This document shows, one piece after another, positions 41,423-62,852 of a DNA stretch of 64,000 nucleotides. This DNA is from a virus. Position numbers and translations under genes: made by a program. A model generated the notes under the pieces. That model saw nothing but the letters and a program-made list of their open reading frames with translations. It did not search any database and was not told the DNA's origin. The stretch lies in IMG/VR virus record IMGVR_UViG_3300025917_000002, positions 1 to 64,000 of that record. One strand, given 5' to 3'. Every line of letters begins with the position of its first letter. Position 1 is the first letter of the stretch.

Positions 41423-43105
41423 ATGACCAACGGCCTCGTCAGCATCATAATCCCCTCCCGCAGCGAGCAATTCCTCGTCCCCACGGTCAACGATTTGTTC
41501 GCCAAAGCGGTTGGTCCCATCGAAGTAATAGTGTGCTTGGATGGTGGGTCATGGCCTGATCCACCCCTACCGTTCGACCGTGGAAGCCTCACTGTTATCC
41601 GCCATTCAGAGTCCCTCGGCACGCGCGCCGCGATCAACGCCTGCGTCGAAGCCGCCAGTGGCGAGTTCATCATGAAGTCCGACGCTCATTGCTTGTACGC
41701 GGAAGGGTTCGATGAGGCCCTCAAAGCCTCTTGCTTCTCCAACCACGTCGTCGTCCCCCGCCGCAAGCGCCTTGACGCGGAGAACTGGCGCGTCGAGGAA
41801 ACCAACCGGCCCGACTGCGACTACGAATACATCCAGTGGCACCCCACCGACTTCGGCGGTCGCGGCCACAACATCGCCCGTTGGGAGGAGCGCAACCGGG
41901 ATGAGTCGCTCAAGTCGATCCCGATCGACGACCTGATGGCCTTCCAGGCGAGCTGCTATTTCATGCGCCGAGACTACTGGAATTTCCTAGAACTGATGGA
42001 CGAGTCCGCCTACGGCAAAACCCAAAACGAAGGAGAGGAGATCGCGCTCAAATGTTGGCTCAGCGCCGGGCGGGTAGTTATCAACAAGCTCACGTGGTTT
42101 GCCCACTTGTGGAAGGGCTCCCGCTACCCCCGCGACTACAAGTTCGAGCCGTCCGACCTCGCCCAAGGCGCGAGCGGCGTTCAGCGGTGGCTCACCGACT
42201 CCGCGTGGCCCAAGCAAACGCTCCCGTTCTCGTGGCTGATCGACAAGTTTAACCCACCCGGTTGGCCCCCCGATTGGCGCGCGCAGGTAATCAATGACCA
42301 GTCTCGGCCAGTACCAATATCGCACGGAAGCCGGAGCCCTGATGCCCCCGGCTCTCCGCTACCACAACTGGATCAACCAAGCCCTGCACCGGGGCCACTG
42401 CCCGCTGAACGCGACGCTCCTAGTGCTGGGGTCGTTCTACCAAAGGATATACGGTCTATGAGCGATACGCTTGCCCGCATCCTCGGCAAGTTCAACCTTG
42501 ACCCGAGGGCTGATTACAGCAAGGTCACGATGCCCCTTACGTTGCGGATGAACCGCACGGAACTTGCCGCGTTGTTCGCCGAACTCGGTTTCACCGTGGG
42601 GGCGGAGATCGGCACGGCGGCGGGAGATTATGCAGAGACGCTCTGTAAAGCGAACCCCGATCTGCTGCTCCTACATTGTGTGGACAAGTGGCAACCTTAC
42701 CACGGCTACACCGACCACACCCATAAGACGACGTTGGACGGATTTTACAATGAGGCTAAAGCGCGGCTCGCACCTTATCCCGTGTTTATGCACCGTGAGT
42801 GGTCGTTGGATGCGGCGAAGGAATTTGAGGACGGTTCTCTTGACTTTGTCTACATCGACGCGAATCATAGGTACGAGTACGTCGTCGCCGACATCGCCGC
42901 GTGGCTCCCGAAGGTCCGCTCGGGTGGAGTCCTCGCGGGCCACGACTTCAACCAGTCCCGCCAGTCCCGCAAGAAGCTCTTTGGCGTCGTCGAGGCCGTC
43001 ACCGGCTGGTGCTCCGCCTACAACGTAGCCCCTTGGTTCGTCTGCAAGGGCGAATGGGTTTCGGTCGGAGATAAGACGCCGAGTTGGTTCTGGGTGAAGC
43101 CATGA
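41423..43105 (+). CDS. GT-A glycosyltransferase (ppGalNAc-T-like) fused to class I SAM methyltransferase
   Basis: SIIIPSR, KSDAHC, EEIALKCWLSAGRV...FAHLWK; Pro linker; AEIGTAAG, DFVYIDANH.Y..V..DI..W..KVRSGG..AGHD. Confidence 0.9.
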   Translation: MTNGLVSIIIPSRSEQFLVPTVNDLFAKAVGPIEVIVCLDGGSWPDPPLPFDRGSLTVIRHSESLGTRAAINACVEAASGEFIMKSDAHCLYAEGFDEALKASCFSNHVVVPRRKRLDAENWRVEETNRPDCDYEYIQWHPTDFGGRGHNIARWEERNRDESLKSIPIDDLMAFQASCYFMRRDYWNFLELMDESAYGKTQNEGEEIALKCWLSAGRVVINKLTWFAHLWKGSRYPRDYKFEPSDLAQGASGVQRWLTDSAWPKQTLPFSWLIDKFNPPGWPPDWRAQVINDQSRPVPISHGSRSPDAPGSPLPQLDQPSPAPGPLPAERDAPSAGVVLPKDIRSMSDTLARILGKFNLDPRADYSKVTMPLTLRMNRTELAALFAELGFTVGAEIGTAAGDYAETLCKANPDLLLLHCVDKWQPYHGYTDHTHKTTLDGFYNEAKARLAPYPVFMHREWSLDAAKEFEDGSLDFVYIDANHRYEYVVADIAAWLPKVRSGGVLAGHDFNQSRQSRKKLFGVVEAVTGWCSAYNVAPWFVCKGEWVSVGDKTPSWFWVKP

Positions 43106-43267
43106 AGTGGAAGGACGAGTCAAAGTTCTCGAAAAGCAAGCGTAAGTATTGGGTGAGAGCGCAAGGTGATATTGCTGAGAGGTGGAAAGGTAGTGGCCCC
43201 AAACCCGAAACGAGAAGCGAGAAACGGAGGGATCGGTTAGCTCGTGGTATATTAGGCATAAAGAAAA

Positions 43268-45136
43268 ATGCGTGACCTCTCCATCCTCATACCTTCCCGT
43301 CAGGAACCATTTTTGCGGCACACAATCGAGGACATCCTCGCCCGCATCGAAGCGGACACGGAGATCATCGCGGTCTGCGACGGGGCCTTGCCGGTAGAGC
43401 CGATAGATGACCATCCGCGTGTGAAGTTGGTGCTGCTCCCGAAGTCCATCGGTCAGCGTGCCGCCACGAACCTCGCGGCTCGAATGTCCAAGGCGAAGTT
43501 CATAATGAAGCTCGACGCGCACTGTGCGCTTGACCAAGGCTTCGACGTTAAGTTGATGGCAGATTGCGAATACGATTGGACGGTTGTGGGAAAAATGTAT
43601 AACCTCCACGTCTTTGATTGGGCCTGCAAGGTCTGCGGCCACCGCCGCTACATGGGTCCACTCCCGACCAAGTGCCTGAACGATGCTTGCCCCGGCACCG
43701 AGTTTGAGCAGATCATCGTTTGGAAGCCCCGGCTCCACCGCCTAACCAGCGCGTATCGGTTCGACGCTAACCTACATTTCCAATATTTTAGAGAGTACAC
43801 CAAACGGCTCTTTAACGCAGGCAACCACGGCCTGCTCACCGATACGATGTCTCTGCTCGGAGCCTGCTGGTTTCTCCATCGCGATCGCTATTGGGAACTC
43901 GGTGGCCTCGATGAGCGGCACACATCCTGGGGCCAGATGGGCACCGAGATCGCCTGTGCCACTTGGCTCACGGGCGGTCGCCTCGTCTGCAACCAGAAGA
44001 CGTGGTTTTCACACATGTTCAGGACGCAGTCGGGGTTTTCGTTCCCATACGAAATGGACGGCAAGGGTCAGGCTTACTCGCGGGTCCACTCGCGCTGGCT
44101 CTGGGTAGAGGGGAACTACCCGAAGATGCTTCGCCCGTTGTCGTCGCTTGTGGAGCAATTCGCCCCCGTCCCCGACTGGACAGATGAGGCGCTTGAGAAC
44201 CTGAAGAAGATCGAACGTAAGAAATGGGGAGGTCGAAATGGACCACTTGTACCATTTTCTGGCGACGCTATCACTAATGGTCAGCCTCGGAGCGTTCTTA
44301 GCTCTGACCGCGCAAATAGTAGTAGGGGTAATCAGGCTCATCAAACCGCTGCGATAATCTACTACACCGACTGCCTGCTCGCCGATCCCATCTACGAAGC
44401 CTGCCAGCGCCAGCTCGCCCGCGCCTGTGGCACGATCCCTATCACGAGCGTCTCCCTCGGTAAAGGCATAGACTTCGGCGAGAACATCATCATCCATCGG
44501 CAGCGGGGGGCGAAGACGCTCTTTCTCCAGCTTATCGCAGGGCTGGAGGCGAGCACCGCCGACTTTGTGTTCTTCTGTGAGCACGACGTGCTCTACGATA
44601 AGAGTTGCTTCGCATTTACACCACCGCGCGACGACGTTTTCTACTACAACGTCTCCCTCGTCCGCGTGAGCGCGGCTTCCGGTAAAGCCGTGGGCTATCA
44701 AGCGAAGCAGCTCTCGGGGCTGTGCGCGAACCGGCTGCTCCTGCTTGAGCACTACTACCGGCGTTTAGCGCGCATGGCCCTAACCTGTCGCCAAGTCGCG
44801 GGCGAAGGCCGCGAACTCCCCCCGAAGTGGCCCGACGGCCACTCCCGCTTCACTGGCTGGGAGCCCGGCGCAAACTCGCGCGCGGGGCACGAGGTTGATG
44901 GCTACAAGAGCGACGTTTGGCAATCAGCCGTACCCTACATCGACATTCGCGACCACGGCACGAACTTTAGTCGAACGCGCTGGAAGCGTTCCCTATTCTG
45001 GGACAAATCCACCTGTGAAGGCTGGCACGAGTTCGCCCCCGGCGAGCTAATTCCCGGCTGGCCGAGCGCCCCTGTTGGGTGCTTCAGCGAGTTCCTCGCC
45101 GACCTATCCAGCTATGTAGCTAACGAAAGTCCTTGA
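43268..45136 (+). CDS. Two-domain glycosyltransferase (ppGalNAc-T-like + second GT-A domain)
   Basis: SILIPSR, KLDAHC, GGLDE..SWGQMGTEI..WLTGG..SHMFR; second domain IIYYTD...FFCEHDVLY. Confidence 0.9.
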   Translation: MRDLSILIPSRQEPFLRHTIEDILARIEADTEIIAVCDGALPVEPIDDHPRVKLVLLPKSIGQRAATNLAARMSKAKFIMKLDAHCALDQGFDVKLMADCEYDWTVVGKMYNLHVFDWACKVCGHRRYMGPLPTKCLNDACPGTEFEQIIVWKPRLHRLTSAYRFDANLHFQYFREYTKRLFNAGNHGLLTDTMSLLGACWFLHRDRYWELGGLDERHTSWGQMGTEIACATWLTGGRLVCNQKTWFSHMFRTQSGFSFPYEMDGKGQAYSRVHSRWLWVEGNYPKMLRPLSSLVEQFAPVPDWTDEALENLKKIERKKWGGRNGPLVPFSGDAITNGQPRSVLSSDRANSSRGNQAHQTAAIIYYTDCLLADPIYEACQRQLARACGTIPITSVSLGKGIDFGENIIIHRQRGAKTLFLQLIAGLEASTADFVFFCEHDVLYDKSCFAFTPPRDDVFYYNVSLVRVSAASGKAVGYQAKQLSGLCANRLLLLEHYYRRLARMALTCRQVAGEGRELPPKWPDGHSRFTGWEPGANSRAGHEVDGYKSDVWQSAVPYIDIRDHGTNFSRTRWKRSLFWDKSTCEGWHEFAPGELIPGWPSAPVGCFSEFLADLSSYVANESP

Positions 45137-45208
45137 CACACCACCCCTAGTGGGCTATGCTCGCCAACCAGAGGGCCAACATGCTCTCGCGCTACGCCTA
45201 AAAACTTT

Positions 45209-46075
45209 ATGGCTAAAGAAACGGACGAAACCGAAGACACCACCGCAACCGAAGACCTCGACCAGCCCGACGAAGCAGCCGAGGATACCCAGCCACTTGA
45301 ACTGCCCGACGATCCCGAAGAACTCAAGAAGTTCGCCACAAGCGCGGCTTCCGAACGAGAGCAACTTCGGCGTGAACGTGCGCAGCTCCAAAGCGAACGA
45401 GACAGACTAAAGGAACTGGAGGAGGAGCAACGTACCAAGGCTACCTATTGGGCCACGGACGCCGAAGCGAAAGCTGCCGAGTTGCGACAACTGAGAGGTA
45501 AGGCTACGAAGCAGCCCAAGGCTGAGGCCGCCGAAGCCGCTGAGGATGACGAAGAACTCGCCGTCCTCGCCGCCAACGGTATGAAGCTCAGCGACCTCAA
45601 GCGCATGTGGCAGGCCGACGCGGACAAGGCCGCTAAGCGAGAACGGGTTGAGGCCACCAATCAAGGCGCTCACGCCCGGCAGATCGTCACTGATTACCCC
45701 GATCTGGCTAACGACAACTCGCCGCTCTCAAAGGCGACGATAGCAGAGATGGAGATCATCAGCCGTGACGACCCGACGCTTAGCGATCAGGCTACGTTCG
45801 AGCTGGCCACTCGCCGCTCTGCGGCGAGGTTGGGAATCGCACCGCGCAGCGTAGCGGCGGCCAACGGCAAGTCGCCCGAGGAAACCGAACGCGCGCGCAG
45901 GCGTGCGGCGCAGGGCGGCCCAACCGGCAAACCAGCAGCCTCGAAAGGCGCAGTCGTCGTCACCGACGCAGACCGAGCGATGGCCCGCAAGATGAACGGT
46001 GGTCAGGACGTGCCCGACAAGCTGTTGATCGAGGCAAAGAGGCGTCTAGCCGACGGCCAAGCGGCCCGTGCGTAG
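45209..46075 (+). CDS. Capsid scaffolding protein
   Basis: Acidic N-terminus, coiled coil, basic C-terminal helix; upstream of capsid; TTGACA promoter at 45133. Confidence 0.75.
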   Translation: MAKETDETEDTTATEDLDQPDEAAEDTQPLELPDDPEELKKFATSAASEREQLRRERAQLQSERDRLKELEEEQRTKATYWATDAEAKAAELRQLRGKATKQPKAEAAEAAEDDEELAVLAANGMKLSDLKRMWQADADKAAKRERVEATNQGAHARQIVTDYPDLANDNSPLSKATIAEMEIISRDDPTLSDQATFELATRRSAARLGIAPRSVAAANGKSPEETERARRRAAQGGPTGKPAASKGAVVVTDADRAMARKMNGGQDVPDKLLIEAKRRLADGQAARA

Positions 46076-46144
46076 CTCAAGTAGCAGTCGTTCTTCCAGA
46101 ACTCCTTCCAAACGTCTCGTCCGCATCACGCGGAGCGAGAATCC

Positions 46145-46942
46145 ATGTCAAGTCAGCCGACCGAAGCAGCCGATGCACGGACCATCGGCCAGTACAACAC
46201 CGATCCCCTAAACAAACAGCAACGTGGCCGTTTGCACTACCTCGGCTGGAAAAACGTAGACATCGCCGAGATGACCGTGGCCGGTGCGCTCGCCAATCTC
46301 AAGGCTGGTAGCGCGAAACCCGGCAGCAAAGCCTTTCTCAAGAACCAAGTTAATCCGTTGACTGGCACCAAGGATGTCAGCGAGCTTGTCGGCAAGTATT
46401 CCAACGAGGAGATCGAGAAGCGTGCTGGCAACGCTCCGCTCCCAAGTGGTGTGCAGGTAACAGTCGATGAGTTTACCCGTAAATGTCAGCAAGCGGCTAC
46501 CGAACCCTTCGTCATGGACGAGTACACGGGCCGCGTGACCAAGGGCGCGGACCCGATGAACGCAATGCTCCATGAGATGGAGGAGCGTTATTGCGTTTAT
46601 AAGGACGGGTTCGACAAGGAAGGTAAGCCCGTCAAGGTCCGAACCCCTACTCGACGCTTCCGCTTCACCCATCCAAGTGAGCCGCCAGTCCTCGGGCCAG
46701 CGTGGGACCCCGTTTACGATCAAGTCACTGGTAAGCGCGTCCAAGTTGGAGAACTGTTCATGGTCTGGATGCCGGTGGAAATCTACCAAGAGGGTCGCGA
46801 GAAGCCAAACCTTGAGCGTTCACGCCGAATGACCGGTGCGATCGAGAAGAACAAGTCCGACCAGATGAGCAGTGACGGCGAGAGCGCAAACGTCACCGAG
46901 GGCAAGTTTGAAATCGGTAAGTCAGAGGCGTATTACGCCTAG
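46145..46942 (+). CDS. Head-module hypothetical protein
   Basis: Long ORF between scaffold and capsid genes. Confidence 0.55.
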   Translation: MSSQPTEAADARTIGQYNTDPLNKQQRGRLHYLGWKNVDIAEMTVAGALANLKAGSAKPGSKAFLKNQVNPLTGTKDVSELVGKYSNEEIEKRAGNAPLPSGVQVTVDEFTRKCQQAATEPFVMDEYTGRVTKGADPMNAMLHEMEERYCVYKDGFDKEGKPVKVRTPTRRFRFTHPSEPPVLGPAWDPVYDQVTGKRVQVGELFMVWMPVEIYQEGREKPNLERSRRMTGAIEKNKSDQMSSDGESANVTEGKFEIGKSEAYYA

Positions 46943-47033
46943 CGGCGGCAAAGCCGCCGGTCGGGGTTCTCGCTGAGTCGAGAGTCCATTCGATGGCCTC
47001 CAAGAACACGAACAAAAAAGAGAGGAACTGAAA

Positions 47034-47585
47034 ATGGCTAACGTTGACAACCCAAATGGATTTGCTTTCACCAGCTTGAACAACCCGAACCCCCCGGACA
47101 CTAAGCAGTACGTCAAGCTCGTTGGCGTCGCGCAGGCATTCTTCCAACAGGAAGTTGCGTTCCAAGCCGCGTCGTCTACGCTCTCCGAGGGCAAGGGGGC
47201 GATTACGCCGCTTGGCACGCCTGGCACCACCGTCATCATGGGTGTCTGCCAGAACCGAGGTGCAGCTTCCCTCAAGACTCGCCACCACGTCATCGTTGAC
47301 CCCCGCGCCGAGTTCATCGCGCAAGACGACGGCGACACTAACGGCGTCGATGCCACCGAAGCAAACCAGAATGCCAACGTCTCGCTTGGCGCAGGCAGCG
47401 CCACAACCGGCTTCTCCGGCAACGAAATCGACGAAGCCTCCATCGCCGTCACCCTCGGTCTCGATCTCCAGCTGATCGGGCTCGCCCCCGACGTGAGTGC
47501 GGTCGGAAACGCCTTCGGCAGCAGCCACGTCCGAATGATTTGCCGGTTCCACGTGAACCGATTTGCTCGAAGCGCCGGGCTGTAA
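47034..47585 (+). CDS. Capsid decoration/cement protein
   Basis: MANVDNPNGF..., IVDPRAEFIAQ, directly before capsid gene. Confidence 0.7.
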   Translation: MANVDNPNGFAFTSLNNPNPPDTKQYVKLVGVAQAFFQQEVAFQAASSTLSEGKGAITPLGTPGTTVIMGVCQNRGAASLKTRHHVIVDPRAEFIAQDDGDTNGVDATEANQNANVSLGAGSATTGFSGNEIDEASIAVTLGLDLQLIGLAPDVSAVGNAFGSSHVRMICRFHVNRFARSAGL

Positions 47586-47620
47586 GCCTAGCGCCACTTT
47601 TATAAGTGAGGTAAACGAAA

Positions 47621-48589
47621 ATGCCGATGCTCAGGACCCAATACCCCGAGCTATTCCAGCTCGATACGGTCACGCAGACGCGGCTCTCATTGCTGGAGTC
47701 CCTGTCTGACATGGCCTTCGATATGTTCCCACCCGAGTTCAACAAGATCGTCCGTGAGTCCGACGGGGACGGCACGGGCGAAACCGATAAGGCGATGGGG
47801 GGCTTCGGGCTCCCGCAAGAGGTCGATGGTGAACTTGGCGGAGTCCACTACGATGTCCAGTCCCAATGGTTCCAACAGACATACATTTTTGGGCGATTCA
47901 CCCTTGGTTTCATCGTCTCGCTCGAAATGCAGGAAGACGACCAGTGGGGCTTGGCTGGCACCCGATCGAAGAAGTTTGGGCGCTCGTGGAAGCAGCTTCC
48001 CGAAGTCCTCGTCGCCCGCCTACTCAACGAGTCCTTCACCTCGACGACCCAAAGCGGGATCATGAACGCCGGTCGCAGGTCGCCGGATGGAGTTGCCCTG
48101 TTCTCCACTTCCCACCCCAATCCGGGGCCGGGTGGTGGCGTCCAGTCCAACACCAACGCCAGCGGCGGCGTTGCCCTCTCACACCAGGGGCTTGAAGCCA
48201 TGATGATCCGTATGGCCTCGCGCACGGATGACCGGGGGATTCCCGTCAACACGCCGATGAAGAAGCTGGTCGTGCCGAAGGAACTCTACCCACGGGCTCT
48301 CGAAGTCACGGGGTCGAGCTTCCGAACGGACACCCTGTTCCGCGTTGACAACGTGCTGAACAAGGTCTACCCGATCGAGGTCATCCAGAACCACAACCTC
48401 ACGAGTGCAACCGCCTACTTCGGCTTCAGCGATTCCGAGCAATGCGGACTCCGCTGGATTTGGCGTCGCCGCCCGACCCGCCGTATGTGGAAAGACCCGA
48501 ACACCGAAGCCATGCACGTCGCGGGGAGCGCGCGGTTCGATTTCGGTTATTCTCACAGTTTTGGAAGTGACGGCGACCCCGGGGCCTAA
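47621..48589 (+). CDS. Major capsid protein (HK97 fold, Mu gpT-like)
   Basis: MGGFGLPQEV, PDGVALFSTSHP, KKLVVPKEL, ARFDFGYS...GDPGA. Confidence 0.88.
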   Translation: MPMLRTQYPELFQLDTVTQTRLSLLESLSDMAFDMFPPEFNKIVRESDGDGTGETDKAMGGFGLPQEVDGELGGVHYDVQSQWFQQTYIFGRFTLGFIVSLEMQEDDQWGLAGTRSKKFGRSWKQLPEVLVARLLNESFTSTTQSGIMNAGRRSPDGVALFSTSHPNPGPGGGVQSNTNASGGVALSHQGLEAMMIRMASRTDDRGIPVNTPMKKLVVPKELYPRALEVTGSSFRTDTLFRVDNVLNKVYPIEVIQNHNLTSATAYFGFSDSEQCGLRWIWRRRPTRRMWKDPNTEAMHVAGSARFDFGYSHSFGSDGDPGA

Positions 48590-48598
48590 TGATTAGAT

Positions 48599-49216
48599 TC
48601 AAGGGGTTACGGCCTTCTTTGGACGGGGCGGACGTGGTTTAACGATGTCCGAGATTGTTGAGAAATGGAGGCCGAACTCGGCACCGAGGGCGGTTAGCTT
48701 TTCGCCTTGGGCGCGACGCTGGCGAATCTCTTCACGCTGAGCATCGGAAACTTTTGACGAGCCGTTCTTTTCGCCCCGGAGTGCCCGTTCTGGATTGCGA
48801 TGAAGATAATGAGTATCACCTTTAGGACATCGGCCAAGAGCCATTGCGTGATCGACGTTCTCGCGGTGCGTGATATATCGCAGGTTGGTTATGCGATTGT
48901 TCAATGGGTAGCCGTCTTGGTGATCCAACTCAAGGCCCTTCGGCTTTGGGCCGAGGAACGTAGCAGCAATCACGTTACCAACTTCAAGCCATCGCCCCTT
49001 GCCGTTCCCATCCCACAATTGAACCTTGTAGCGGCCTTTTTTAGTCAAGCCGTAGCGAAGATAACGAACATGTTCGCCCAACGGAGTCGAACTAAAGGCG
49101 ATGTCTCGGCGAATACGGCCAAGGGTAGATGCGGAGTAATGGATATAGAGGGGAATCGTTTTCCACTCTTCCAGTTGCAATTCAGCATCGGTAAAGGTAG
49201 GTTGCTCAACAGGCAT
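48599..49216 (-). mobile_element. Free-standing NUMOD4-HNH homing endonuclease, antisense to late genes
   Basis: EEWKTIP..YSASTLGRIR, FLGPKP..LDHQDG..NNRITNLRY..N; AGGAGG RBS before MPVEQ. Confidence 0.85.
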
Positions 49217-49315
49217 GGTCTGAAGCCTCCTTTCAGGCTGTGTCTTGAGCCCGCGATGTTCAACGCATCGACGGGCTCGCTTATTGTACCAGACCCAGTG
49301 TTCTAAAGGAACAAT

Positions 49316-49666
49316 GTCATGCCAATCGCAAACATAGATTTCGAGTTCTGGCACGCAGACGACTCCACCGGCTCGCACAGATCAAAGGTGCGAGTCGAGG
49401 TGATCGCAGGCGTTTGCCGCGTCTACGTCCAGAAGACTGAGGGGCGGGGGCCGTTTCCGGTGTTCCTTTACGGCACGTTAACGATGGCGGAATCACCGTC
49501 GGCGAGCGCATCAGTTTCGGCCAGCCCGAGCGTTAGCTCATCGGCGTCACCATCGGCTAGCCCAAGTGTGTCGGCATCGGCATCACCGTCAACCTCGGCT
49601 TCAGCTTCGCCGTCTACGTCAGCTTCGGCGTCATCGTCGGTATCGGCTTCAACCAGCCCAAGCTAG
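49316..49666 (+). CDS. Small virion-module protein with Ser/Pro/Ala-rich C-terminal tail
   Basis: ~58 aa globular part plus ~57 aa [13 protein letters not shown] tract. Confidence 0.7.
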   Translation, partial: VMPIANIDFEFWHADDSTGSHRSKVRVEVIAGVCRVYVQKTEGRGPFPVFLYGTLTMAESPSASASVSASPSVSSSASPSASPSVSASASPSTSASASPSTSASASSSVSASTSPS

Positions 49667-49975
49667 GAGGTCTGAACTATGGCAAAAACGAAAGCTCCAC
49701 CAAAAGAAACACCGCTCAAGACCTTCGAGCCAAGCCCAATTCCCGGCGACACGTTCCACGAGCGCGGCCCGGCGATCCGCGTTGGCAAGAAGGAAGGGCC
49801 GCTGCCGGGAAACTTCCCCGGCTACCACCAGCTCAAGGTAGCGGGATTCACGACCTACGGGTCGGCTCGCACCATCGTCGATCTCAAGTTGATCGCGAAT
49901 TTGGACGAGCCGACCCAAAAAGCAGTCGAGAAGGCCCTCGAAGAATAGCAGTTGGTTGTATCTAGTGCTTCTCTG

Positions 49976-50005
49976 AGGGCGGGCCACAAACGCCCGTCCT
50001 TTTTT
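49976..50005 (+). terminator. Intrinsic terminator
   Basis: AGGGCGGGC/GCCCGTCCT then T run. Confidence 0.7.
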
Positions 50006-50286: not shown

Positions 50287-51207
50287 ATGGCAGAAACCCT
50301 TGGGGCGTTCAGACTGCGAGTATCGAAAACCCCGGTTGGCGCGTCGGTTGATCCCGACGTTCTCAACGGTGAGATAAATGATTGTGTGGAGAGAATCTGC
50401 CGTGCCTTCCCGTGGACCCGCCTCAAGCAGCAATCGGTCTTGCAGACCGTGGCGGAATACACCACGGGTACAGTTGACATTGCTCTCGGCGCGACCTCGG
50501 GCACGGGTACCGGAACCACGTTCACAACTGCAATGACCGGGCGTTTCATCCGCCTTAGCAATCTCCTCCCCCCTTACATCTTCACGTTCGTCTCTACCAC
50601 ATCGTTCACTATCGACCGTCCCTTCGAGGGGGCTACGCTGGACGACGCGGGATTCAAAATCTACCAGTCGATCTTCGAGCTACCGGCGACGCTGGAATCC
50701 ATCAGCAGCCTTCGCAACCTGACCTTCGGCTACGACCTGAACCCCGAAACCCGCGAGTGGCTCGACCGCAACGCAGCCGCGCGCTACGCCTACGGCCAAC
50801 CGGCGATGTACGTGCCAGCCGAGGACAGCGCAGCGGGGCTACAACAAATCGAACTCTACCCCGCGCCAATCGTCTCGCAGGGCCTTGGGATGGACTGGCG
50901 AACGCAACCGCCCCTGTTCGATCTTGAGAACCTCGACACGGACGACACCTTCCCCGACTGGTTCTCGATGCCAGCGGTGATGGCGGGGGTTCTGGCCTCG
51001 CTCTACCGGCTACAGGGTGAACAGGCCCTTGCGCAGATGGAAGAAGCTCGGTTCCTGATGCTCGTTCGCGAGATGCAAAGCGAAGACGCGCGGCGGATGC
51101 CGCCTCAAACGATGCGCCAAGCAGATCGCTACGTGATGCACCGGGTTCGGCGCGCGAACCACGGGGACGATTACGACATAACGAATTGGTCCGACGCAGG
51201 GAGCTAA
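50287..51207 (+). CDS. Head-tail adaptor/tail tubular A-like protein 1
   Basis: EINDCVERICRAFPWTRL, GQPAMY...IELYPAP; inserted YTTGTV..GTGTTFT beta domain. Confidence 0.7.
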   Translation: MAETLGAFRLRVSKTPVGASVDPDVLNGEINDCVERICRAFPWTRLKQQSVLQTVAEYTTGTVDIALGATSGTGTGTTFTTAMTGRFIRLSNLLPPYIFTFVSTTSFTIDRPFEGATLDDAGFKIYQSIFELPATLESISSLRNLTFGYDLNPETREWLDRNAAARYAYGQPAMYVPAEDSAAGLQQIELYPAPIVSQGLGMDWRTQPPLFDLENLDTDDTFPDWFSMPAVMAGVLASLYRLQGEQALAQMEEARFLMLVREMQSEDARRMPPQTMRQADRYVMHRVRRANHGDDYDITNWSDAGS

Positions 51208-51216
51208 GGAGGACTT

Positions 51217-51549: not shown

Positions 51550-51579
51550 GGCGGTTCAATGTACCGCGTTAGCAAACGG

Positions 51580-51608
51580 GGCTGAGGCAGCGGGCCTCGG
51601 CCCTTTTT
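51580..51608 (+). terminator. Intrinsic terminator
   Basis: GGGCTGAGGC/GCCTCGGCCC then TTTTT. Confidence 0.7.
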
Positions 51609-52143: not shown

Positions 52144-54234
52144 GTGGCGCGTTTATTTGACGGCACCAATGACTCGCTTCAAGCCGCGTCTGTTGACCTC
52201 TCAGCGGTCGATAAGCTCACGCTGTCCCTATGGCTCTGGTGGGATGCCTTCGCCAACAACGATGACCTTGCCTTAGAGTTCACCGCCGATGCAGGCGGTA
52301 ACGTCGGTTCCTTTTATCTCGATCCGAACCACTCAACCAGCGGTGCTTTCCAAGTGCTCATCGGCCCAACCGGCTCCATAACTCAAGGAACCTTTACCCG
52401 TCCCAGCGCAGCAGCTTGGCATCACTACGTCATCCAGCTCGACAAGTCAACCAATCCTGATTCGATTGCAGTCTGGGTTGACGGCGTTTCTCAGACCTTT
52501 ACCTACGGTAGCCAAGTTGACCAAGGCAGCAACTTCGCCAATGCGACGCTCAACTTCATGAGCCGGAACAACGCTTCGCTGTTCGGCGCGGGGCGACAGG
52601 CTGAGGTGGCGATCTGGCCGGGGGTACTACTGGACCAAGCTGAGATCACCGCGCTCGCGCAGGGGTATACGCCGGACCAAATCCGCCCAACTGCCAAGCC
52701 TTACTATTGGCCGCTGCACGGGCGTAACTCGCCTGAGAACGAGTTGTTCTTCGGAGCTAGCGCAACGGTCAACGGCGCGACCCAGACCGACCATCCGCGC
52801 ATCATTGAGCCACGGGCATTGGAGTTCCAGACCGAGCCGATTGGTACGAGCCCGAGCCCATCGGTTAGCCCGAGCACGTCGCCGAGTGCGTCCCCTTCGG
52901 TGTCCGCCTCAGCATCACCGTCTGTCTCGCCCAGCACCTCTGAGAGCGTGTCACCGTCTACATCCGAATCAGGGAGCGCGTCGCCAAGCGTCAGTCCAAG
53001 CCCGTCTCCTTCTACCAGCCCATCGGCGTCGCCCTCTGCCAGCGCGTCCGCTTCGACGAGTACGTCCGAGTCTGCCTCACCTAGCGTTAGCCCAAGCGCA
53101 AGCGGAAGCGAGTCCCCGTCCACGAGCGCCAGCGCGACCGGCAGCGTCAGCCCGAGTACCTCGCCCTCGGCCTCGGCATCGGGTAGCACGTCGGCCAGTA
53201 CCTCAGCTAGCGCATCGTCCAGCACATCAAGCTCGCGCTCTGCCTCGGCATCGCCATCCCATTCGGTTAGCGCGAGCCCTTCGGCGTCGGTGAGCGAGAG
53301 CCCCTCAGTCTCAGCGTCGCGCTCCGCGTCGGCCTCGCCTTCCACATCCGTCAGTTCGTCGCCGTCTGCAAGCGCGAGCCTCAGCGGTTCGGCCTCCGCA
53401 AGCCCTTCGGCCTCAACATCCGTCTCGTCCTCAGCTTCGCGCTCACCATCGGTCAGCGAGTCCGGCAGTGCCAGCGCCTCAGTCAGCGCATCATCCGGCG
53501 AAGAAGAAGTCCCCTGTGACCTGACCCTCGCGAACCTACGCTTCCGCGTTCTTGACATGCTTGACGACGTGCCCGGTCGCTACTGGACCCCGGCTGAGAT
53601 CGACCACGCAATCAACGTTGCGCAGCGGCTCTGGTGCCTTTTGACCCTGTGCCTCGAAAAGACCGTAGTTTATACCCTCTCAACGGACGGTCGCGCCTTC
53701 TATCTTATCAGCGACCAGATAGACGACTTCATCGTGCCCCTCCGCGTGAGCCACACGGGCGGTGCTCGGCTCAAGTCGGACACCATCCATAACCTCGATC
53801 TCCGTAGCAGCACTTGGCGCGTCACGCCGGGTCCGCCCACGCGCTACGCGCAGTACGGCTTCGACCTTCTGGCTATCACGCCGCAACCCACGGTCGCTTC
53901 GACCTTGACTATTACCTATGCAGCGGAGCCGGTTGAACTCGTGGCGGACGCCGACGTACCGGACATCCAGCCGGAACAGCAGGTTCACCTTGAGCAGTTC
54001 GCGTTCTGGTTCGCGAGGTTGAAGGAGGGCGGAGCGGAACTACAGAATGCAGTGGCGAACCTCAATACGTTCCTCGATGCGGCGACCAAGTATGCGTCGT
54101 TCACGAGGGCACGGTCACGCGCTCAGCTCTATGACAACATCCCTTTCGACGTGGCATCATTCGATCGCGGTCGTTTCGAGATCAAACTGAAGAACCAGCC
54201 CCGAATGGAAGCGAGGAAAACCAGTGGTACTTAG
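52144..54234 (+). CDS. LamG/ConA-like domain + Ser/Pro-rich stalk + head-tail adaptor-like domain
   Basis: WHHYVI..VWVDG..AEVAIW..L..AEI; ~215 aa SP tract; [26 protein letters not shown]. Confidence 0.75.
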
Positions 54235-54853
54235 CGTCGCAACCCTCATCACTCAGCTCTACCCGCAGCTCCACGGCAGCAGTGAGGCGGACCTAGTTTT
54301 CACTGATGACGATGACATGGTTCGCCTGTTCTCGGACGCGATCAAGAACCTCGCTCAACGGTTCGGCGTGTTCGTCCTGCGCCACATCAACCGCTCGCTC
54401 GTCCAGGGGCAGCTTTACTATGACGCGCCCCCTCGCCACCTCTCCACGCTCCACGTCGCGATCCTCGAAACGGGTAAGCCGCTTGCTGCCAGTTCCACCA
54501 AGGAACAGGAGCTTCGCTCGACGGCGTATGAGACGACGCAAGCAACCGCCGCCAAGCCAATCCGCTGGTGGATCGAAGACAAGGCTGGCGTCAACCGGGT
54601 AGGGATCGTGCCCCTGCCGGGGGCGGATGACTCGGGGAACCATTGGGATATGGTTTATCATGCTTACTCTTGCAACGTACTAGAGGGGATCGAGACGAAC
54701 CACACTTGGGGTGATTATCTCTCGCACGTAGTTATGGCCGATCTGTGGACACCGGAGTCCGACTTCTCCATCCCCGAGAGCGCCAAAGGCTACCGAGCGT
54801 TAGCCAATCTGTACGAAGCGGTCGCTGAGAAGCTGTGGAACAAAGCTCAGTAG
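54224..54853 (+). CDS. Adaptor/ring-like protein 3
   Basis: [25 protein letters not shown] parallel the other two adaptors. Confidence 0.55.
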
Positions 54854-54865
54854 GAGAACCTGTAG

Positions 54866-57800: not shown

Positions 57801-57946
57801 ACTGCCGAGTCGAAGCAATCCGGTTCTGGATGAAGATGATTGGAGCCCCAAACGCGACGCCGTGGCAGTGGTTTGACTTGCCGCTTGACCGGACCCAAGA
57901 TGCGATCTGGGTGCCTCTAGCCTTTGGTGAAGATCAGGTAGCGTAG
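54866..57946 (+). CDS. Tail nozzle / tubular protein B (P22 gp10-like)
   Basis: NIAFDQAGGLRSRKG start, YGRLL..FYWSH..P propeller motifs, ISEGVEPIF, SKAYDCG. Confidence 0.75.
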   Translation: MPYQKSVQRVLAGSTNLRARATEIPGDDNQKSVNIAFDQAGGLRSRKGHDLICTASGSVSQMLRAMGSRWQATKEAYITGFKKYVWKMGAGEVDKACQTIISTTGPRKSDGTNDWRWIPVAPTDAPVIEAAEEVLTVVDEFTGGWSKDTDITVDEEGNRTDDDGNLLNEDGNPVDADGNLLSGFDALGYDYDSHGLRVKGGTNKVVSFTKSVELDLSDGFDLNDLFRVRLRAKKWSSIVGVSFDVDVNDGSFQKDYYKVRMPLKEILTAKKETVTFYIRKRLLEVGDAAKNKNRYGSFERIGSTTDKDWRSVVALRVKVEFSIQTKFWFSNWVMIGDADNTLEGDDFQVCYTYDTEDGHESNPSPWSDPIVVNHVAIKVTDMVTSGDEQVIGQNIYLRGGTLALPYRVNGAKLGEDGQPTETEPITGAEYTITANANELSDLDIVLEDDHDDPPDATGLADAPFYGRLLAFKDARFYWSHQNKPFAFANPDGPDGDWDEIDENAGIIKRMVVRFQQTRLYCENAILVLEGDPADALAVIHPSGVEMGTPSRFGVCKAVGGVDVAYLGGGIYLVDDSSVQKISEGVEPIFQGLSTNLWDGTVASPIGDPTTVAVGYEDGIIYVSYDNGMLAMDLLRRRWFQDSRRFTCFQAEGEVGLLGGQSSGKVLHLNTGNTDEGAAFPIDFLSKAYDCGISDNEKRWEDITIFHDTANQDLTVSIYPFETAAVQSVVINSGLRTRTVIQLNDGNGIRSRNLAVRITGDVTNPIFIDAIDINYYPEAREAKSYDTAVSDAGTPKVKLIREVQCDLENDGPVTVTVEGDVPGFALGITRESHTLTANPFRHTEPVVMTSPSLIYGHDFRVVASADSGHFHMFGVRALVQFIGTYLHGTKGEYYLSDPMDFGSERVKLVKEIEIIYATLGTVEVTIYTDLPGNAVVARGVTFLPATPTAAVVGGEQSIKIPLVGTIKGRLLQLKLEPSTDCRVEAIRFWMKMIGAPNATPWQWFDLPLDRTQDAIWVPLAFGEDQVA

Positions 57947-58063
57947 GTAGCATAACATGCCAAACGGGCTGCTCAGATCACACTTACGTAAATTAACCGT
58001 AACCACCTGATCTTCATGATAGGATAGATGTAGTTCAAAGTTCACAAGACGATAAGGAGCGTA

Positions 58064-58519
58064 ATGAAACAGTTAATGCTTGGATTCGTTCTTACGGGGC
58101 TTTTGATAAGTCTCGCCTCGGCTGCGCCGAGGATACCTAGTACAAAGGAGAGAGTAATGCCAACTGGAACCATAGCTGTCAATTCGTCAAGCCAATTAAC
58201 CCTTGGCGGTACGGTTGTGTTTGATGTGACTTTTGACCCGCCGAACCTAGACCAAAAAACAAAGCCATCCGGCGGGGTACGAATCATGTTGGAAGCCTCT
58301 GTCCCGGTAGGATCAGGCCCGCCCGGTGATGTTCTGTACCGTGATGAAAAACATTACGATCAGCCTTTTGTATTAGGCGAAGGCGGGACTTGGGAAGGTA
58401 CACAATGGAGTGACGTGGGAGGCCCGGCGCACATACGAGCCGATCTTTTCTACTGGGACTACAAAGACCCGCAGCAGCGCTTCAAGTGGCTGGCGACTGT
58501 CGAATTCGAGGCGAACTAG
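58064..58519 (+). CDS. Secreted protein with signal peptide (moron-like)
   Basis: MKQLMLGFVLTGLLISLASA; AT-rich intergenic flanks. Confidence 0.65.
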   Translation: MKQLMLGFVLTGLLISLASAAPRIPSTKERVMPTGTIAVNSSSQLTLGGTVVFDVTFDPPNLDQKTKPSGGVRIMLEASVPVGSGPPGDVLYRDEKHYDQPFVLGEGGTWEGTQWSDVGGPAHIRADLFYWDYKDPQQRFKWLATVEFEAN

Positions 58520-58649
58520 TCTAAATGGCTTGGGGGAGTATCTGAAAAAACCGCCAGCACTCTTATGGCGCTGACGGCTGCCGCGCCAACTAAATGAAAG
58601 GAAAACGTGGCAATACGGTCAGTATAGTCTTTATTTCTCGGATCACCTA

Positions 58650-60500
58650 ATGTCTTGGGGAGTACCAAAACTAGGGACGTTGGTTGAAGACCCTGTGAGC
58701 GGGGGCAACTTCACCCTAATTGAGCCCGCGGGCGTGGCACAGGGTGACCTGATGATTGCCTGTATTGCCTACCGTGGTAATGCGGCGATTACGGCTCCTG
58801 CTGGCTGGTCTACCGTAGCCACGGCGCAAAACACGGGCGACACCGACGCCACAAACGGCATCGCGAGTGGCGTGATGTTCTACATCACTCGTGGCGCGTC
58901 TGCCCCTGATCTAGTTTGCACGCGGACAGCCGGGGATGTGGTTCAGGCACGGGTTATTTCTTACTCAGGATATTCGGGTGTATACGATACTGGCACGTCT
59001 CGCACGCTCGCTGTTGCCTCGGCTACTGCTACGACGGCCTCGTTCGACACCGTTGTAGCGAACGAACTAATCGTTGCTATGGTGTCGGGCGGGGATAATT
59101 ACAGCGTTTCGACGGGCTTCGATGCGACTGATCCGGCTACCGCATCAGGTACAACCGCCGACACAACGACAGCTCCAACAGCAGGGACGTGGATACTCCG
59201 ACACCTATCGGGGACGGGGACAGGTGCCGACTCAACTTTGGTGATAGGCGATGCAATTCGAGCGACGGCGGGCGCGACCGGGCAGATATCTTGTGTGCTA
59301 TCAGGAATAGCCCAACAGGTGATGGTTGCGGGCGCGTTCAAGGTCAGGTATGCGACGGTTGTGTTGAATAGCCCTGCTGATGCGTCGTCGGATCCAGATA
59401 CAACGCCTACACTGGACTTTACCGGCACGGACCCAGATGGCGATTCGCTTGAGTACAACGTACGAATAAGTGGTGTAATTGATAAATATAGTGATGGCAA
59501 TATAAGTGGTTACTCGTCGTTTGGCGCGACCACTGGCGATCACGGTAACGGGCAATCATTTACTGGTACGGGTCAAACCCTACGCGCTGTCGAGTTTATG
59601 TTAGCAAACTTGTTAGGGTGTACCGGGAACGCAGTAGCAAAGATTTATGCGCATTCTGGTGCGTTTGGTACGTCATCTGTCCCCACCGGAGCAGCACTGG
59701 CTGTCTCTGATAATCTTGATGTGTCCACGCTGCCAACAGCACTAGATTATACATCTTCAACGGTTTTAACTTTTTCGGGTGCTAATCAAATTGTTTTAAC
59801 CAACGGTACGAAATATGTGGTTAGTTTGGAATATGAATCTGGCAGCACTCTTAGCATTCGATTGGGTATAGATACTACATCTCCTGGCCATGCTGGAAAT
59901 TGTATCATCAAGAATAGTTCTGATGTGTGGAACGCGCTGAACACCACCGACATCTGCTTTTCTGTGGATTTCTTTGTACTCAATAAGTTCTCTGCGTCAG
60001 ATGCGGGGTTCGTCAATCCGGATACAGGCGGAGATACCCACCCGTTTAATTCAGGCGAGAACATTCAATATACAGTTCAGGCAGGAGACGCCTTAGCCCC
60101 TGAGACTTATTCTTGGCGGGTCCGGGCTATTGATCCTGCTGGCAGTAACAGCTATGGAGAGTGGTCAGCAACACGGAGCTTTACCATTACGGTCGTAGGA
60201 AGCACCAGCGAATCGGCTAGCCCTTCCGTCTCATCTTCCGTCTCTCCTTCCACGTCCCAATCGGTCTCGTCGTCTACCTCTGTATCCACGTCAGAGTCCG
60301 TTTCGCCGTCTGTAAGTTCGTCCATTTCACCATCGGTCAGCGAGAGCGCAAGTTCGAGCGTCAGCCCAAGCGCAAGCCCTTCAGCATCCCCATCAACCTC
60401 ACCATCATCAAGCGTCAGTCCGTCGGCGGGTATACAGCCATTACCCTTAGTCTTTTCCCGACGTGGTATGATACTGACACACAGGAGATATATCCCATGA
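58650..60500 (+). CDS. Virion appendage/fibre-like protein with FN3/Ig-like domain and Ser/Pro-rich tail
   Basis: GDLMIACI..TAPAGW; TTPTLDFTGTDPDGD..YSWRVRAID..WSATRSF; SP tract at ~60200-60428. Confidence 0.7.
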   Translation: MSWGVPKLGTLVEDPVSGGNFTLIEPAGVAQGDLMIACIAYRGNAAITAPAGWSTVATAQNTGDTDATNGIASGVMFYITRGASAPDLVCTRTAGDVVQARVISYSGYSGVYDTGTSRTLAVASATATTASFDTVVANELIVAMVSGGDNYSVSTGFDATDPATASGTTADTTTAPTAGTWILRHLSGTGTGADSTLVIGDAIRATAGATGQISCVLSGIAQQVMVAGAFKVRYATVVLNSPADASSDPDTTPTLDFTGTDPDGDSLEYNVRISGVIDKYSDGNISGYSSFGATTGDHGNGQSFTGTGQTLRAVEFMLANLLGCTGNAVAKIYAHSGAFGTSSVPTGAALAVSDNLDVSTLPTALDYTSSTVLTFSGANQIVLTNGTKYVVSLEYESGSTLSIRLGIDTTSPGHAGNCIIKNSSDVWNALNTTDICFSVDFFVLNKFSASDAGFVNPDTGGDTHPFNSGENIQYTVQAGDALAPETYSWRVRAIDPAGSNSYGEWSATRSFTITVVGSTSESASPSVSSSVSPSTSQSVSSSTSVSTSESVSPSVSSSISPSVSESASSSVSPSASPSASPSTSPSSSVSPSAGIQPLPLVFSRRGMILTHRRYIP

Positions 60501-60985
60501 GCCGAATGTACCGAGTTCCGTTTACTGGCACCTTAACCAACGCAGGGGGCGACAGTGATTTGCTGAGCATCCAGCCCGCCGATGACAAGCCGTGTAAGAT
60601 CGCCGGGTGGTTTATTAGCCAAAGCTCGGAGATTGGTGATGTCCAAGAGGAGAATCTGCGCATTACTGTAAGGCACATGACCGCAACCGTTACTATTGGC
60701 AGTGGTGGGTCCGCAGTGACGCCTGTACCTCGGCGACCCGGTACTGACCTTGCTGCTGGATTCGTTGCGCGATGCAATGACACAACCGTTTCGACGACCA
60801 GTGGCACGAGCACAGTCTGTGAGGAGCTGGGATGGAACGAACGCAGCACTCCTTGGGAGCGGTTTATACCAGAAGAATTCCGGTTGCAGGCGGTGCAGGG
60901 TGAAGTGTTGATTGTCCGATGTGAATCAACTCCCGCTGACGACCTTACAATCGAAGTTACGTTCTTTGTCGAAGAAGAAGGCTAA
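60497..60985 (+). CDS. Small virion-module protein
   Basis: Overlaps previous gene stop; beta-rich. Confidence 0.6.
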   Translation: MSRMYRVPFTGTLTNAGGDSDLLSIQPADDKPCKIAGWFISQSSEIGDVQEENLRITVRHMTATVTIGSGGSAVTPVPRRPGTDLAAGFVARCNDTTVSTTSGTSTVCEELGWNERSTPWERFIPEEFRLQAVQGEVLIVRCESTPADDLTIEVTFFVEEEG

Positions 60986-60992
60986 AAGCTGA

Positions 60993-62852
60993 GTGGCAAC
61001 TTTCCACCGTTATAGGCTATTCAAGCTACCGCGTGCGCGGTGGATACCTAGTCGCACCCAAGTTAGCCCTTCCACGTCCGAAAGCGCCAGTCCAAGTCTT
61101 AGTGAGTCGGTATCACCTAGCGTATCGCCGTCTGTTAGTCCAAGTGTCAGCCCCAGTGTAAGCCCATCTGTTTCTGAATCACCGTCACCGTCAGTATCTC
61201 CCTCAGAGAGCGCATCGGCGAGTGAATCAACGTCACCGTCGATCTCTGAGTCCGTTTCGCCGTCCACGTCGGAATCGTCATCCATCTCGCCGTCAACGTC
61301 CGAGTCGGCTTCTCCGTCAGCGTCCCCATCTGTAAGCCCGAGCTTATCGGAAAGTGCATCACCATCGGTTAGTCCCTCTACATCTGAGTCGATCTCACCA
61401 TCAGAGTCCGAAAGCTCAAGCCCGTCTCCGAGCGAGGGTGTAGAATGCGACGAGCCAAGGACCCCAAATATCACACGAAACCACGATGTCGGACAGAATG
61501 CGTGGGCTAATACCGACAACGCCAAGGTCCCAGATTCCGCCTTCGCTACCGTTCTTTTCCCTGTTGACGGAGCCTCACTGAGCGACTATCTCTTGGTCAG
61601 AGACTTCGGGTTTACAATCGACTCATACACCATCATCGAAGGCATAACGGTCGAGGTTCTGCGCAAAGCAGATATGCTCGGGGTTAAGAGTGCCAACATC
61701 AATCTCGTTAAGGATGCGGACCAAGCTGTTCCTGTAGTATTTTCTGGCAACGATCCGGCAGTTGGCGACACCCTGCCTCTTATATCTAACTACAAAGCCT
61801 ACGGTGGCACCTACGAACTATGGGGAATGAGCTGGACAGCGGCGGAGATTAACTCGCCCGCGTTCGGGGTGTGGATACAGCTTAATGGTATAGATACACC
61901 AGGGGCAACGGCTTCTATAGACGCTGTTCAGGTAACGGTCTGTTATCTACAGACTGCATCTGTGTCGGAGAGCGCATCGCCATCTGTATCGCCTTCGACT
62001 TCGGCGTCAACATCCGAGAGCCCAAGCCCCAGCCTGAGTGAGAGCGCAAGCCCGAGTGTTAGCCCGAGCACGAGCCCATCGGTCAGTGAATCGGCCAGCT
62101 CCTCAGTATCCGAGTCGGTGTCGGCGTCCACATCCGAGTCCGCTTCACCTAGTGTTAGCTCGTCGACTTCTCCGTCTGTATCACCGTCGGTATCGGTATC
62201 TGTGTCGGAGTCTGCGTCGCCTAGCGTTAGCTCCTCGGTGTCGCCTTCGGTGTCGGCCTCGGCTTCTGAGTCATCGTCCGAATCATCATCAGTCAGCGGC
62301 TCCGTGTCCCCATCGGTGTCACCGTCTACTAGCGAGAGTGCCAGTGCCTCAGTAAGTCCGTCGTTGTCACCAAGCGTTTCACCATCAGCGTCCCCAAGCG
62401 TAAGTCCCAGTCCAAGTGAAAGCGCAAGTGCCAGCGTTAGCCCTAGCATCAGTCCGTCTACCAGCCCATCGGCCAGTTCGTCAGTATCATCGTCATTATC
62501 AGAGAGCCCGTCACCATCGGCTTCACCGAGCGTAAGTCCATCTGTATCACCGTCTGCATCACCGTCTATATCACCGTCAACATCCGAGTCCGCCTCGATC
62601 AGCGGCAGTATATCACCATCTACATCACCATCACTGTCCCCCTCACTTTCGCTTAGTGCCAGCCCATCTCCCAGCCCTAGCTTCTCCTTCGCGGTCTGCC
62701 CGGAGGTGGGGGAGGCCGTAGCTACGTTCACGGTGGTAGCATGGAGCGGCCAAACATCGGGAGCGGCCACAGCGGTTCCAGCAGATGTTGCTTGGAGTGG
62801 TATTATCTCAGGGCAGGCAACGGCGGCGTTCACCGAGGTCCCATGCGTTTAG
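60993..62852 (+). CDS. Mucin-like protein: two Ser/Pro-rich tracts flanking a beta-sandwich domain
   Basis: ~125 aa and ~245 aa SPSVSPS tracts; central [26 protein letters not shown]. Confidence 0.75.

Follow-up and report, generated by a model that had tools for sequence, protein, structure and literature searches.

Why would a tailed phage encode two glycosyltransferases (GTs) amid the genes that build its particle, and why are several of its late proteins drawn out into long tracts in which serine occupies every second position? Both features occur in IMG/VR virus record IMGVR_UViG_3300025917_000002, an uncultivated tailed phage with a 73,768-bp genome that has direct terminal repeats and is rated 100% complete; the window analyzed here is the first 64 kb of that genome. 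An earlier note on the window had proposed a phage system for mucin-type O-glycosylation, in which polypeptide N-acetylgalactosaminyltransferase (ppGalNAc-T)-like enzymes decorate Ser/Pro-rich proteins of the virion. Having followed up that proposal with family, structure and neighborhood comparisons, we find that the best reading of the locus is O-glycosylation of the tracts of the virion by a cytoplasmic enzyme cassette of the phage, and to judge from the genes this reading is probably correct.

The glycosyltransferase gene pair

The two GT genes lie inside the virion operon between the genes for the portal and the candidate scaffold, which is where the earlier note had placed them. The order of the genes, with lengths in amino acids (aa), is as follows.

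37023-39482, plus strand: SU10-type portal, the start of the virion module (PF23899, E 6e-7, 28.7 bits, slightly below the Pfam cut-off of 30 bits)
41423-43105, plus strand: 560-aa enzyme with a GT27-like GT-A domain (residues 5-282), a Pro-rich linker (~295-345) and a class I S-adenosylmethionine (SAM) methyltransferase domain, Methyltransf_24 (395-509)
43268-45136, plus strand: 622-aa enzyme with an N-terminal GT27-like GT-A domain (residues 1-323), a disordered linker (324-356) and a second GT-A-fold domain (357-620)
45209-46075, plus strand: candidate scaffold, acidic and Ala/Glu-rich, assigned by position and composition, immediately 3' of the GT pair

Five small open reading frames (ORFs) separate the portal gene from that of the 560-aa enzyme, and the GT pair holds three GT-A-type domains and one methyltransferase domain in two genes. 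The candidate scaffold has no family match.

Pfam places the 622-aa enzyme in the broad family PF00535 (Glycos_transf_2; E 6e-12, with 2e-9 for the 560-aa enzyme), and NCBIfam returned only generic GT2 matches below threshold. Sequence matches of the 622-aa enzyme in the Protein Data Bank (PDB) at E <0.01 are exclusively GalNAc-transferases, the best being GalNAc-T1 (1xhb, E 3.9e-6), and the segment from W221 to R252 aligns with the Gal/GalNAc-T motif of that enzyme. An AlphaFold2 model built with 102 homologues has a mean pLDDT of 90.8 and consists of two domains joined by a disordered linker. Among the matches listed in the first 49 Foldseek ranks for the enzyme, all are GalNAc-Ts from human, mouse, fly or Toxoplasma (GalNAc-T1, T2, T4, T7, T10, T12, PGANT9 and TgGalNAc-T3), with E values from 1.7e-15 to 2.9e-12. 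Sequence and fold thus both bear out the description of the 622-aa enzyme as ppGalNAc-T-like. Residues D83-A84-H85, W221-G222, G225, E227, H249, F251 and R252 are invariant in the 102 homologues, i.e., the motifs DxH, WG..G.E and H.FR are kept, and the DxH and C-terminal His motifs suggest that it is a metal-dependent GT-A enzyme. The catalytic domain also has a zinc-ribbon-like Cys4 insertion (C120, C123, C136 and C141), in which three of the cysteines are invariant and C123 is nearly so.

The C-terminal domain of the 622-aa enzyme, modeled alone (pLDDT 94.7), adopts an alpha/beta fold of the GT-A or nucleotide-diphospho-sugar transferase type. Its best Foldseek matches are heparosan synthase 2, alpha-1,3-galactosyltransferase and GlcAT-P (E ~1e-5), and an invariant E438-H439-D440 follows a hydrophobic strand at the position of the DxD motif. 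VIA-align gave Z scores of 11.5-11.9 for GT-A glycosyltransferases, level with those for IspD-type nucleotidyltransferases. From the model we read this domain as a putative second glycosyltransferase, with a nucleotidyltransferase as the remaining alternative.

The 560-aa enzyme (PF00535, E 2.2e-9; PF13578, E 8.2e-17) is a diverged paralogue of the GT27-like domain of its neighbor (hhalign probability 100%, E 6.6e-40). It keeps DAH and FAH motifs, its WGG-like segment has diverged, and it has no zinc ribbon or Cys insertion. The label ppGalNAc-T-like, which the earlier note had given to both enzymes, holds for this one only through the paralogy, since its own best PDB sequence match, TgGalNAc-T3 (6s22), is not significant (E 0.16). 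Neither enzyme has a membrane segment (maximum 19-residue Kyte-Doolittle means of 1.48 for the 622-aa and 1.33 for the 560-aa protein), which suggests that both work in the cytoplasm, the site of virion protein synthesis.

The family of the 622-aa enzyme comprised >2,700 proteins in a first search, and 389 IMG/VR contigs encode a relative. The fusion of two domains in the window is one of several arrangements; in many viral records the two are separate adjacent genes (e.g., G023:C1:2592-4197, G005:C1:32023-33689 and G019:C1:9921-11587), and many viral records have 3-6 matches to the GT family per genome.

Alternating-serine tracts and their association with the enzymes

What could such enzymes act on in this phage? 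A scan of all six frames of the whole genome for (S-X) runs of at least eight repeats found five strictly alternating (Ser-X)n tracts, which amount to 717 residues in four late ORFs and occur on the plus strand only.

49493-49663, plus strand: Ser-X tract of 57 aa, in ORF 49319-49666
52849-53496, plus strand: Ser-X tract of 216 aa with one register break, in ORF 52144-54234
60201-60428, plus strand: Ser-X tract of 76 aa, in ORF 58650-60500
61065-61436, plus strand: Ser-X tract of 124 aa, in ORF 60993-62852
61959-62690, plus strand: Ser-X tract of 244 aa, in ORF 60993-62852

The count agrees with the five tracts of roughly 700 residues in four late proteins reported earlier, save that the first of these ORFs starts at 49319 and not at 49316. 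The earlier description of the tracts as rich in Ser, Pro, Thr, Ala and Val is right as to composition and too loose as to pattern: Ser stands strictly at every second position (52-57% Ser), and the X residues are P (99), A (75), V (61), T (35), E (35), S (21) and others (32). A DNA pattern for SPS[AV]SPS[AV]SPS matches 10 times in the window and not once in 100 shuffles. Their reading frame continues into conserved neighboring domains, such as the SU10 adaptor domain described below. All six Ser codons occur in them, exact DNA words common to them do not exceed 18 nt, and the arrays found by Tandem Repeats Finder (TRF) are weak and short. The scrambled Ser codons and the lack of long DNA repeats point to upkeep of the repeat at the peptide level, with no slippage artefact, and the peptide pattern itself is, on this codon evidence, under selection. 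Since Ser stands at alternate positions, Pro can fall only at odd offsets from any Ser, and the offsets found are -3, -1, +1 and +3 only. Studies of GalNAc-T peptide preference have found that Pro at these same four positions enhances activity.

Long minus-strand ORFs rich in D, G, E and L cross the tracts (52704-53558, 61010-61525 and 61943-62833). They are by-products that mirror the Ser-codon repeats, and gene callers might be misled by them.

The proteins that carry the tracts are listed below; their locations in the virion are deduced from gene order only.

49319-49666, plus strand: 115-aa protein, just after the major capsid gene, made up of an N-terminal domain of 58 aa followed by a Ser-X tail of 57 aa
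52144-54234, plus strand: 696-aa protein with an N-terminal domain of ~225 aa, a 216-aa tract and a C-terminal SU10-type head-to-tail adaptor domain (residues 461-650)
58650-60500, plus strand: 616-aa tail-module protein with a globular region of ~517 aa, a 76-aa tract and a short basic C-terminal peptide
60993-62852, plus strand: 619-aa tail-module protein with a 24-aa basic N-terminal peptide, a 124-aa tract, a globular domain of ~170 aa, a 244-aa tract and an end of ~55 aa

The adaptor domain in the 696-aa protein exceeds the curated threshold of its profile (residues 461-650, PF24175, E 6.9e-13, 49.9 bits vs the 27-bit cut-off; also phrog_399). The gene is the middle one of three consecutive SU10-adaptor-like genes on the plus strand (50287-51207, 52144-54234 and 54224-54853, the third a weak match to phrog_399, E 0.007), and it alone of the three has an N-terminal domain and a Ser-X stalk. 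The N-terminal domain is weakly ConA/LamG-like, with a weak match to the jelly-roll glucanase 3dgt (E 0.03). Should the protein be located at the neck, this would be the point from which its stalks radiate. The 115-aa protein is, from the position of its gene, a candidate head decoration or head fiber, and a relative whose major capsid protein (MCP) is 90% identical (L164) retains both its N-terminal domain and the 57-aa tail. The 616-aa protein has no significant match in Pfam, PHROG, the PDB or the ESM Atlas, and the 619-aa protein has no family match in Pfam or PHROG and no match in the PDB. The basic C-terminal end of the former (60429-60500) contains an H-R-R-Y-I-P-like motif that resembles, albeit weakly, the N-terminal end of the latter (60993-61064); these basic end peptides might dock the two proteins to the virion. 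A 259-aa minus-strand ORF (48599-49378), HNH homing endonuclease-like by eye only, lies between the capsid gene and the 115-aa gene and overlaps the start of the latter by 60 nt.

If the enzymes and the tracts belong to one system, they should travel together, and the co-occurrence that the earlier note had put forward as a test is found in both directions. In the forward direction, the best 80 viral loci from the 389 IMG/VR contigs and 80 loci from metagenome-assembled genomes (MAGs) were examined for tracts within 10 kb of a relative of the 622-aa enzyme, with flanks limited in length. Ser-X tracts were found in 67 of the 80 viral loci, and in 47 of the 80 MAG loci, where many negatives end just downstream of the GT gene. 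The tracts lie on the GT strand, save for an extra short minus-strand run in two viral loci that also bear plus-strand tracts. In the reverse direction, IMG/VR was scanned with a DNA pattern for SPS[AV]SPS[AV]SP that allows TCN Ser codons only and so under-samples tracts; the records hit were divided by the amount of tract in the piece retrieved, and the whole records were searched with a profile of the GT family. Of the 32 records that held 100 or more tract residues, 21 contained the family; of the 35 whose tracts were short or missing, 2 did (odds ratio 31.5; Fisher p = 2.4e-7, a value that overstates the support since the loci are not phylogenetically independent and several contigs are near-identical), and both positives in the latter group do bear tracts, of ~55-62 residues. 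Among records at least 90% complete the figures are 11 of 14 vs 1 of 5. The presence of generic PF00535 genes was rejected as evidence, as it fails to tell tract-bearing records from controls.

A closely matched relative lacks both partners. The 69-kb metagenome contig L169 has the same gene order (portal 48%, MCP 64% and adaptor 45% identical), yet the interval from its last portal-proximal gene to the scaffold measures 1.3 kb, where the 3.9 kb found here hold the GT pair. Over 21 kb it contains no tract, and the counterpart of the 696-aa protein, its second adaptor, is a plain protein of 253 aa whose alignment is confined to residues 457-691 of the longer one. In four further GT-less relatives no tract was found in the parts covered. 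Portals are 45-48% identical in syntenic relatives, and homologues of the candidate scaffold in GT-less relatives directly follow the portal-proximal small genes. The pair formed by L169 and the phage studied here suggests that the enzymes and the acceptor tracts are gained or lost jointly.

The combination also extends beyond phages. In four Patescibacteria-type MAGs, a cassette of GT- and methyltransferase-like genes lies directly upstream of a gene for a giant Ser-X protein.

L141:11819-18937: giant Ser-X protein of 2,372 aa, 2,012 of them in tract
L147:13838-18478: giant Ser-X protein of 1,546 aa
L118:12346-15069: giant Ser-X protein of 907 aa
L156:12433-14121: giant Ser-X protein of 562 aa

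These cassettes are a split, multi-gene version of the one in the window, with nucleotide-sugar genes in one case. No phage genes were seen near them, as judged from the first residues of the ORFs only and with no family search, and the cassettes appear to be cellular and not part of a prophage. By its gene content, the module is thus common to phages and ultra-small bacteria.

How the tracts may be modified, and what else could explain them

The following scheme is inferred throughout, from the transfer onto the tracts and its donor to the sequence of steps, the methyl cap and any biological role. Late in infection, the GT27-like domain of the soluble 622-aa enzyme would place a first sugar, drawn from a nucleotide sugar made by the host, on the hydroxyl groups of tract serines. 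The second GT-A domain of that enzyme and the GT domain of the 560-aa enzyme would then lengthen the glycan or add a second type of initiation, and the methyltransferase domain of the 560-aa enzyme may cap a sugar with a methyl group. Once modified, the tracts would become extended, stiff, hydrated and protease-resistant stalks. The stalk of the adaptor fusion would keep its lectin-like head away from the neck, the stalks of the 616-aa and 619-aa proteins would keep globular domains away from the tail, and the 115-aa protein would hang from the capsid.

Several observations weigh against O-glycosylation of the tracts, in addition to the non-independence of the loci mentioned above. Glycosylation is predicted here from the genes, and there is no cultured relative: neither the DNA from the GT genes to the capsid gene (41423-48589) nor the 622-aa protein has a match in the 50,697 deposited phage genomes of INPHARED. 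Identity to GT27 enzymes is low (16-20%), the 622-aa enzyme has no ricin-type lectin domain, a GT-A-type fold being formed by residues 357-620 instead, and that domain may not be a GT, as its modeled fold ties with nucleotidyltransferases (Z ~11.7). The pairing is absent in 13 of the 80 forward viral loci and in 3 of the 14 near-complete tract-bearing records, so the link is not obligatory or other GTs substitute. The three near-complete records do contain other GT2 genes, which carry no weight because generic GT2 genes are also found in controls.

One alternative is that the tracts serve without any modification as flexible or extended spacers, in the manner of the PT or Ser-rich linkers of cellulases, and that the GTs act on the host envelope, a lipid-linked glycan or phage DNA; action on the envelope could bring about serotype conversion or superinfection exclusion. 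Phage GTs that act on DNA or O-antigen are well known (reviewed in PMC12619734). Moreover, Pfam places both enzymes only in the generic Glycos_transf_2 family, and generic GT2 genes occur also in control phage records without long tracts. Yet the association with long tracts belongs to a specific GT family, whichever of the two is taken as the starting point, and holds in the matched relative, the genes are part of the late virion operon and not of an early or lysogeny module, the enzymes are without the membrane segments expected of GtrB-type lipid-carrier GT2 proteins, and their closest solved relatives modify peptides. We therefore consider plain spacers unlikely.

Alternatively, the tracts may be modified mainly in another way or by host enzymes (phosphorylation, O-acetylation or host GTs), with the phage GTs as accessories. 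A GNAT acetyltransferase encoded downstream in the same genome (64295-64903), the three near-complete tract-bearing records without the GT family, and the cassettes on Patescibacteria chromosomes, by which some hosts could supply the enzymes, would all be in keeping with this explanation. Set against them are the three GT domains that the phage itself encodes beside the substrate genes and the strong association of the tracts with a specific GT family, and we give a main role for other modifications or host enzymes a low probability. That the tracts are an artefact (a wrong frame, a non-coding repeat or a low-complexity assembly error), as the minus-strand shadow ORFs might suggest, is extremely improbable, given that they share a reading frame with conserved domains at the N- and C-terminal ends, use all six Ser codons with no long DNA repeats, recur in the same architecture in >100 independent assemblies and belong to a complete genome with terminal repeats.

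If the tracts are indeed O-glycosylated, how does the phage system compare with those already described? Likeness to the GT27 enzymes of eukaryotes lies in the GT-A domain, the motifs DxH, WG..G.E and H.FR, the best sequence and fold matches of the 622-aa enzyme, and acceptors that are long, dense, Pro-containing tracts of hydroxy amino acids. There are differences as well. GT27 enzymes carry a ricin-type lectin domain, in place of which the 622-aa enzyme has its second GT-A-fold domain and the 560-aa enzyme a methyltransferase domain, and they are type II membrane proteins of the secretory pathway, whereas the phage enzymes are without a signal anchor or Golgi context and are predicted to be cytoplasmic. 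In addition, the catalytic domain of the 622-aa enzyme holds the Cys4 insertion, and the phage acceptors are strictly alternating Ser-X with little Thr. Because the lectin domain and membrane topology of GT27 are missing, we regard the enzymes as distantly related to that family and do not file them as members. The term mucin-type, used in the earlier note, calls for some qualification, given the lack of a ricin lectin, a membrane anchor and a Golgi, and acceptors that are nearer to those of serine-rich-repeat (SRR) adhesins.

The serine-rich-repeat glycoproteins of Gram-positive bacteria (SRRPs; GspB, Fap1, SraP, PsrP and the SRRPs of L. reuteri) have alternating-serine acceptors hundreds of residues long, e.g., SLSNSVSMSE (PMC6973325). 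O-glycosylation takes place within the cell prior to export, with one GT priming the glycan and variable GTs extending it, and the stalk presents a binding domain (PMC6973325). The five tracts of the phage, 57-244 residues long with Ser at alternate positions, fall under this definition of alternating serine, and their pattern is, as far as acceptor sequences go, closer to the bacterial SRR adhesins than to the Pro/Thr/Ser (PTS) domains of mucins. Priming of SRRPs, in contrast, is the work of a GT-B enzyme (GT4), GtfA, with the GtfB chaperone/DUF1975, and export is by SecA2/SecY2; both GT genes of the phage are of the GT-A type, and its Pro-rich tracts are borne by virion proteins. No match to SecA2/SecY2, GtfA/GtfB, DUF1975, GT4 or Sec was found among the phage ORFs searched.

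A multi-domain enzyme of related design is known from the chlorovirus PBCV-1, in which A064R is cytoplasmic and combines GT-A and sugar methyltransferase domains to build the glycan of the virion. A064R belongs to a virus of eukaryotes, however, and the glycans are N-linked to the major capsid protein, with no Ser-X acceptor tracts.

Phages, too, are known to glycosylate their own particles. In the mycobacteriophages Che8, Corndog and Myrna, phage GTs glycosylate structural proteins and thereby shield the particle, with the glycans at the C-termini of capsid and tail-tube subunits, according to the summary in PMC12619734. Those targets, as that text presents them, differ from the dedicated stalks of 57-244 Ser-X residues found here in adaptor, fiber and accessory proteins. 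Judged by its genes, the combination of GT27-like enzymes and dedicated Ser-X stalks would thus be a variant of a phenomenon already known in phages. A search of a limited library found no paper on GT27-like phage enzymes or on phage Ser-X acceptor stalks.

A broader proposal is that phages and Patescibacteria run a prokaryotic counterpart of mucin-type O-glycosylation, with soluble GT27-type enzymes that would modify alternate residues of the Ser-X stalks and bottle-brush fibers that in phages would stand on the capsid, neck and tail; this is about as likely as not. If it is true, the family would contain the closest relatives, among prokaryotes and viruses, of the enzymes that initiate mucin glycosylation in animals, and sugar coating of virions would be common in environmental phages, given the 389 IMG/VR contigs with a relative of the 622-aa enzyme. 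If the tracts are glycosylated, they would represent a widespread phage route to glycoprotein stalks and coats, and virion glycosylation, so far described in a few mycobacteriophages, would reach hundreds of phage lineages in the environment. Glyco-engineering in bacteria could also profit from a GT27-like enzyme that is soluble and cytoplasmic and whose acceptor is a simple repeat, and glycosylated tracts would raise testable questions on the stability of phages, their adhesion to polymers of soil and biofilms, and their evasion of surface defenses of the host.

The genome and its other genes

The sole public DNA dataset that contains the GT region is a rhizosphere metagenome, which may be the source sample, and no RNA dataset is listed for the region among the public datasets searched. 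The genome has a G+C content of 57%, and no tRNA genes were found in it. The nearest MAG matches are scattered over Anaerolineae, Planctomycetota, Patescibacteria and others. The capsid family is small, with ~27 close relatives in a collection of 5.8 billion proteins, and an alignment of the closer MCP relatives used as a query led to 5 viral and 8 metagenome loci only. Two further genes of the virion module have family matches.

47621-48589, plus strand: major capsid protein of the Mu gpT/Phage_capsid_4 type (PF10124, E 2.8e-6; PF25209, E 4.6e-6; phrog_371)
50287-51207, plus strand: first SU10-adaptor-like protein, without a tract (PF24175, E 3.5e-6)

Outside the virion module, the phage encodes a D5-like primase-helicase and a family A DNA polymerase of 1,329 aa (7562-11551, minus strand) with an N-terminal domain of the uracil-DNA-glycosylase superfamily. 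The polymerase has a LAGLIDADG_2 insertion at residues 496-603 that resembles an intein or homing endonuclease. The large terminase (952 aa; 31722-34580, plus strand) contains the second intein-like element of the genome, a LAGLIDADG_3 insertion at residues 320-370. A 151-aa protein encoded midway through the tail module (58064-58519, plus strand) has an N-terminus like that of a signal peptide (maximum 19-residue Kyte-Doolittle mean 1.94) and no family match. The GNAT-type acetyltransferase mentioned above is encoded just past the window (L177:2296-2904, genome 64295-64903; PF13302, E 9e-6) and could bear on modification of the glycan or the tracts. Farther on, an ORF of >1,970 aa (L177:5859-11768) reaches the end of the genome.

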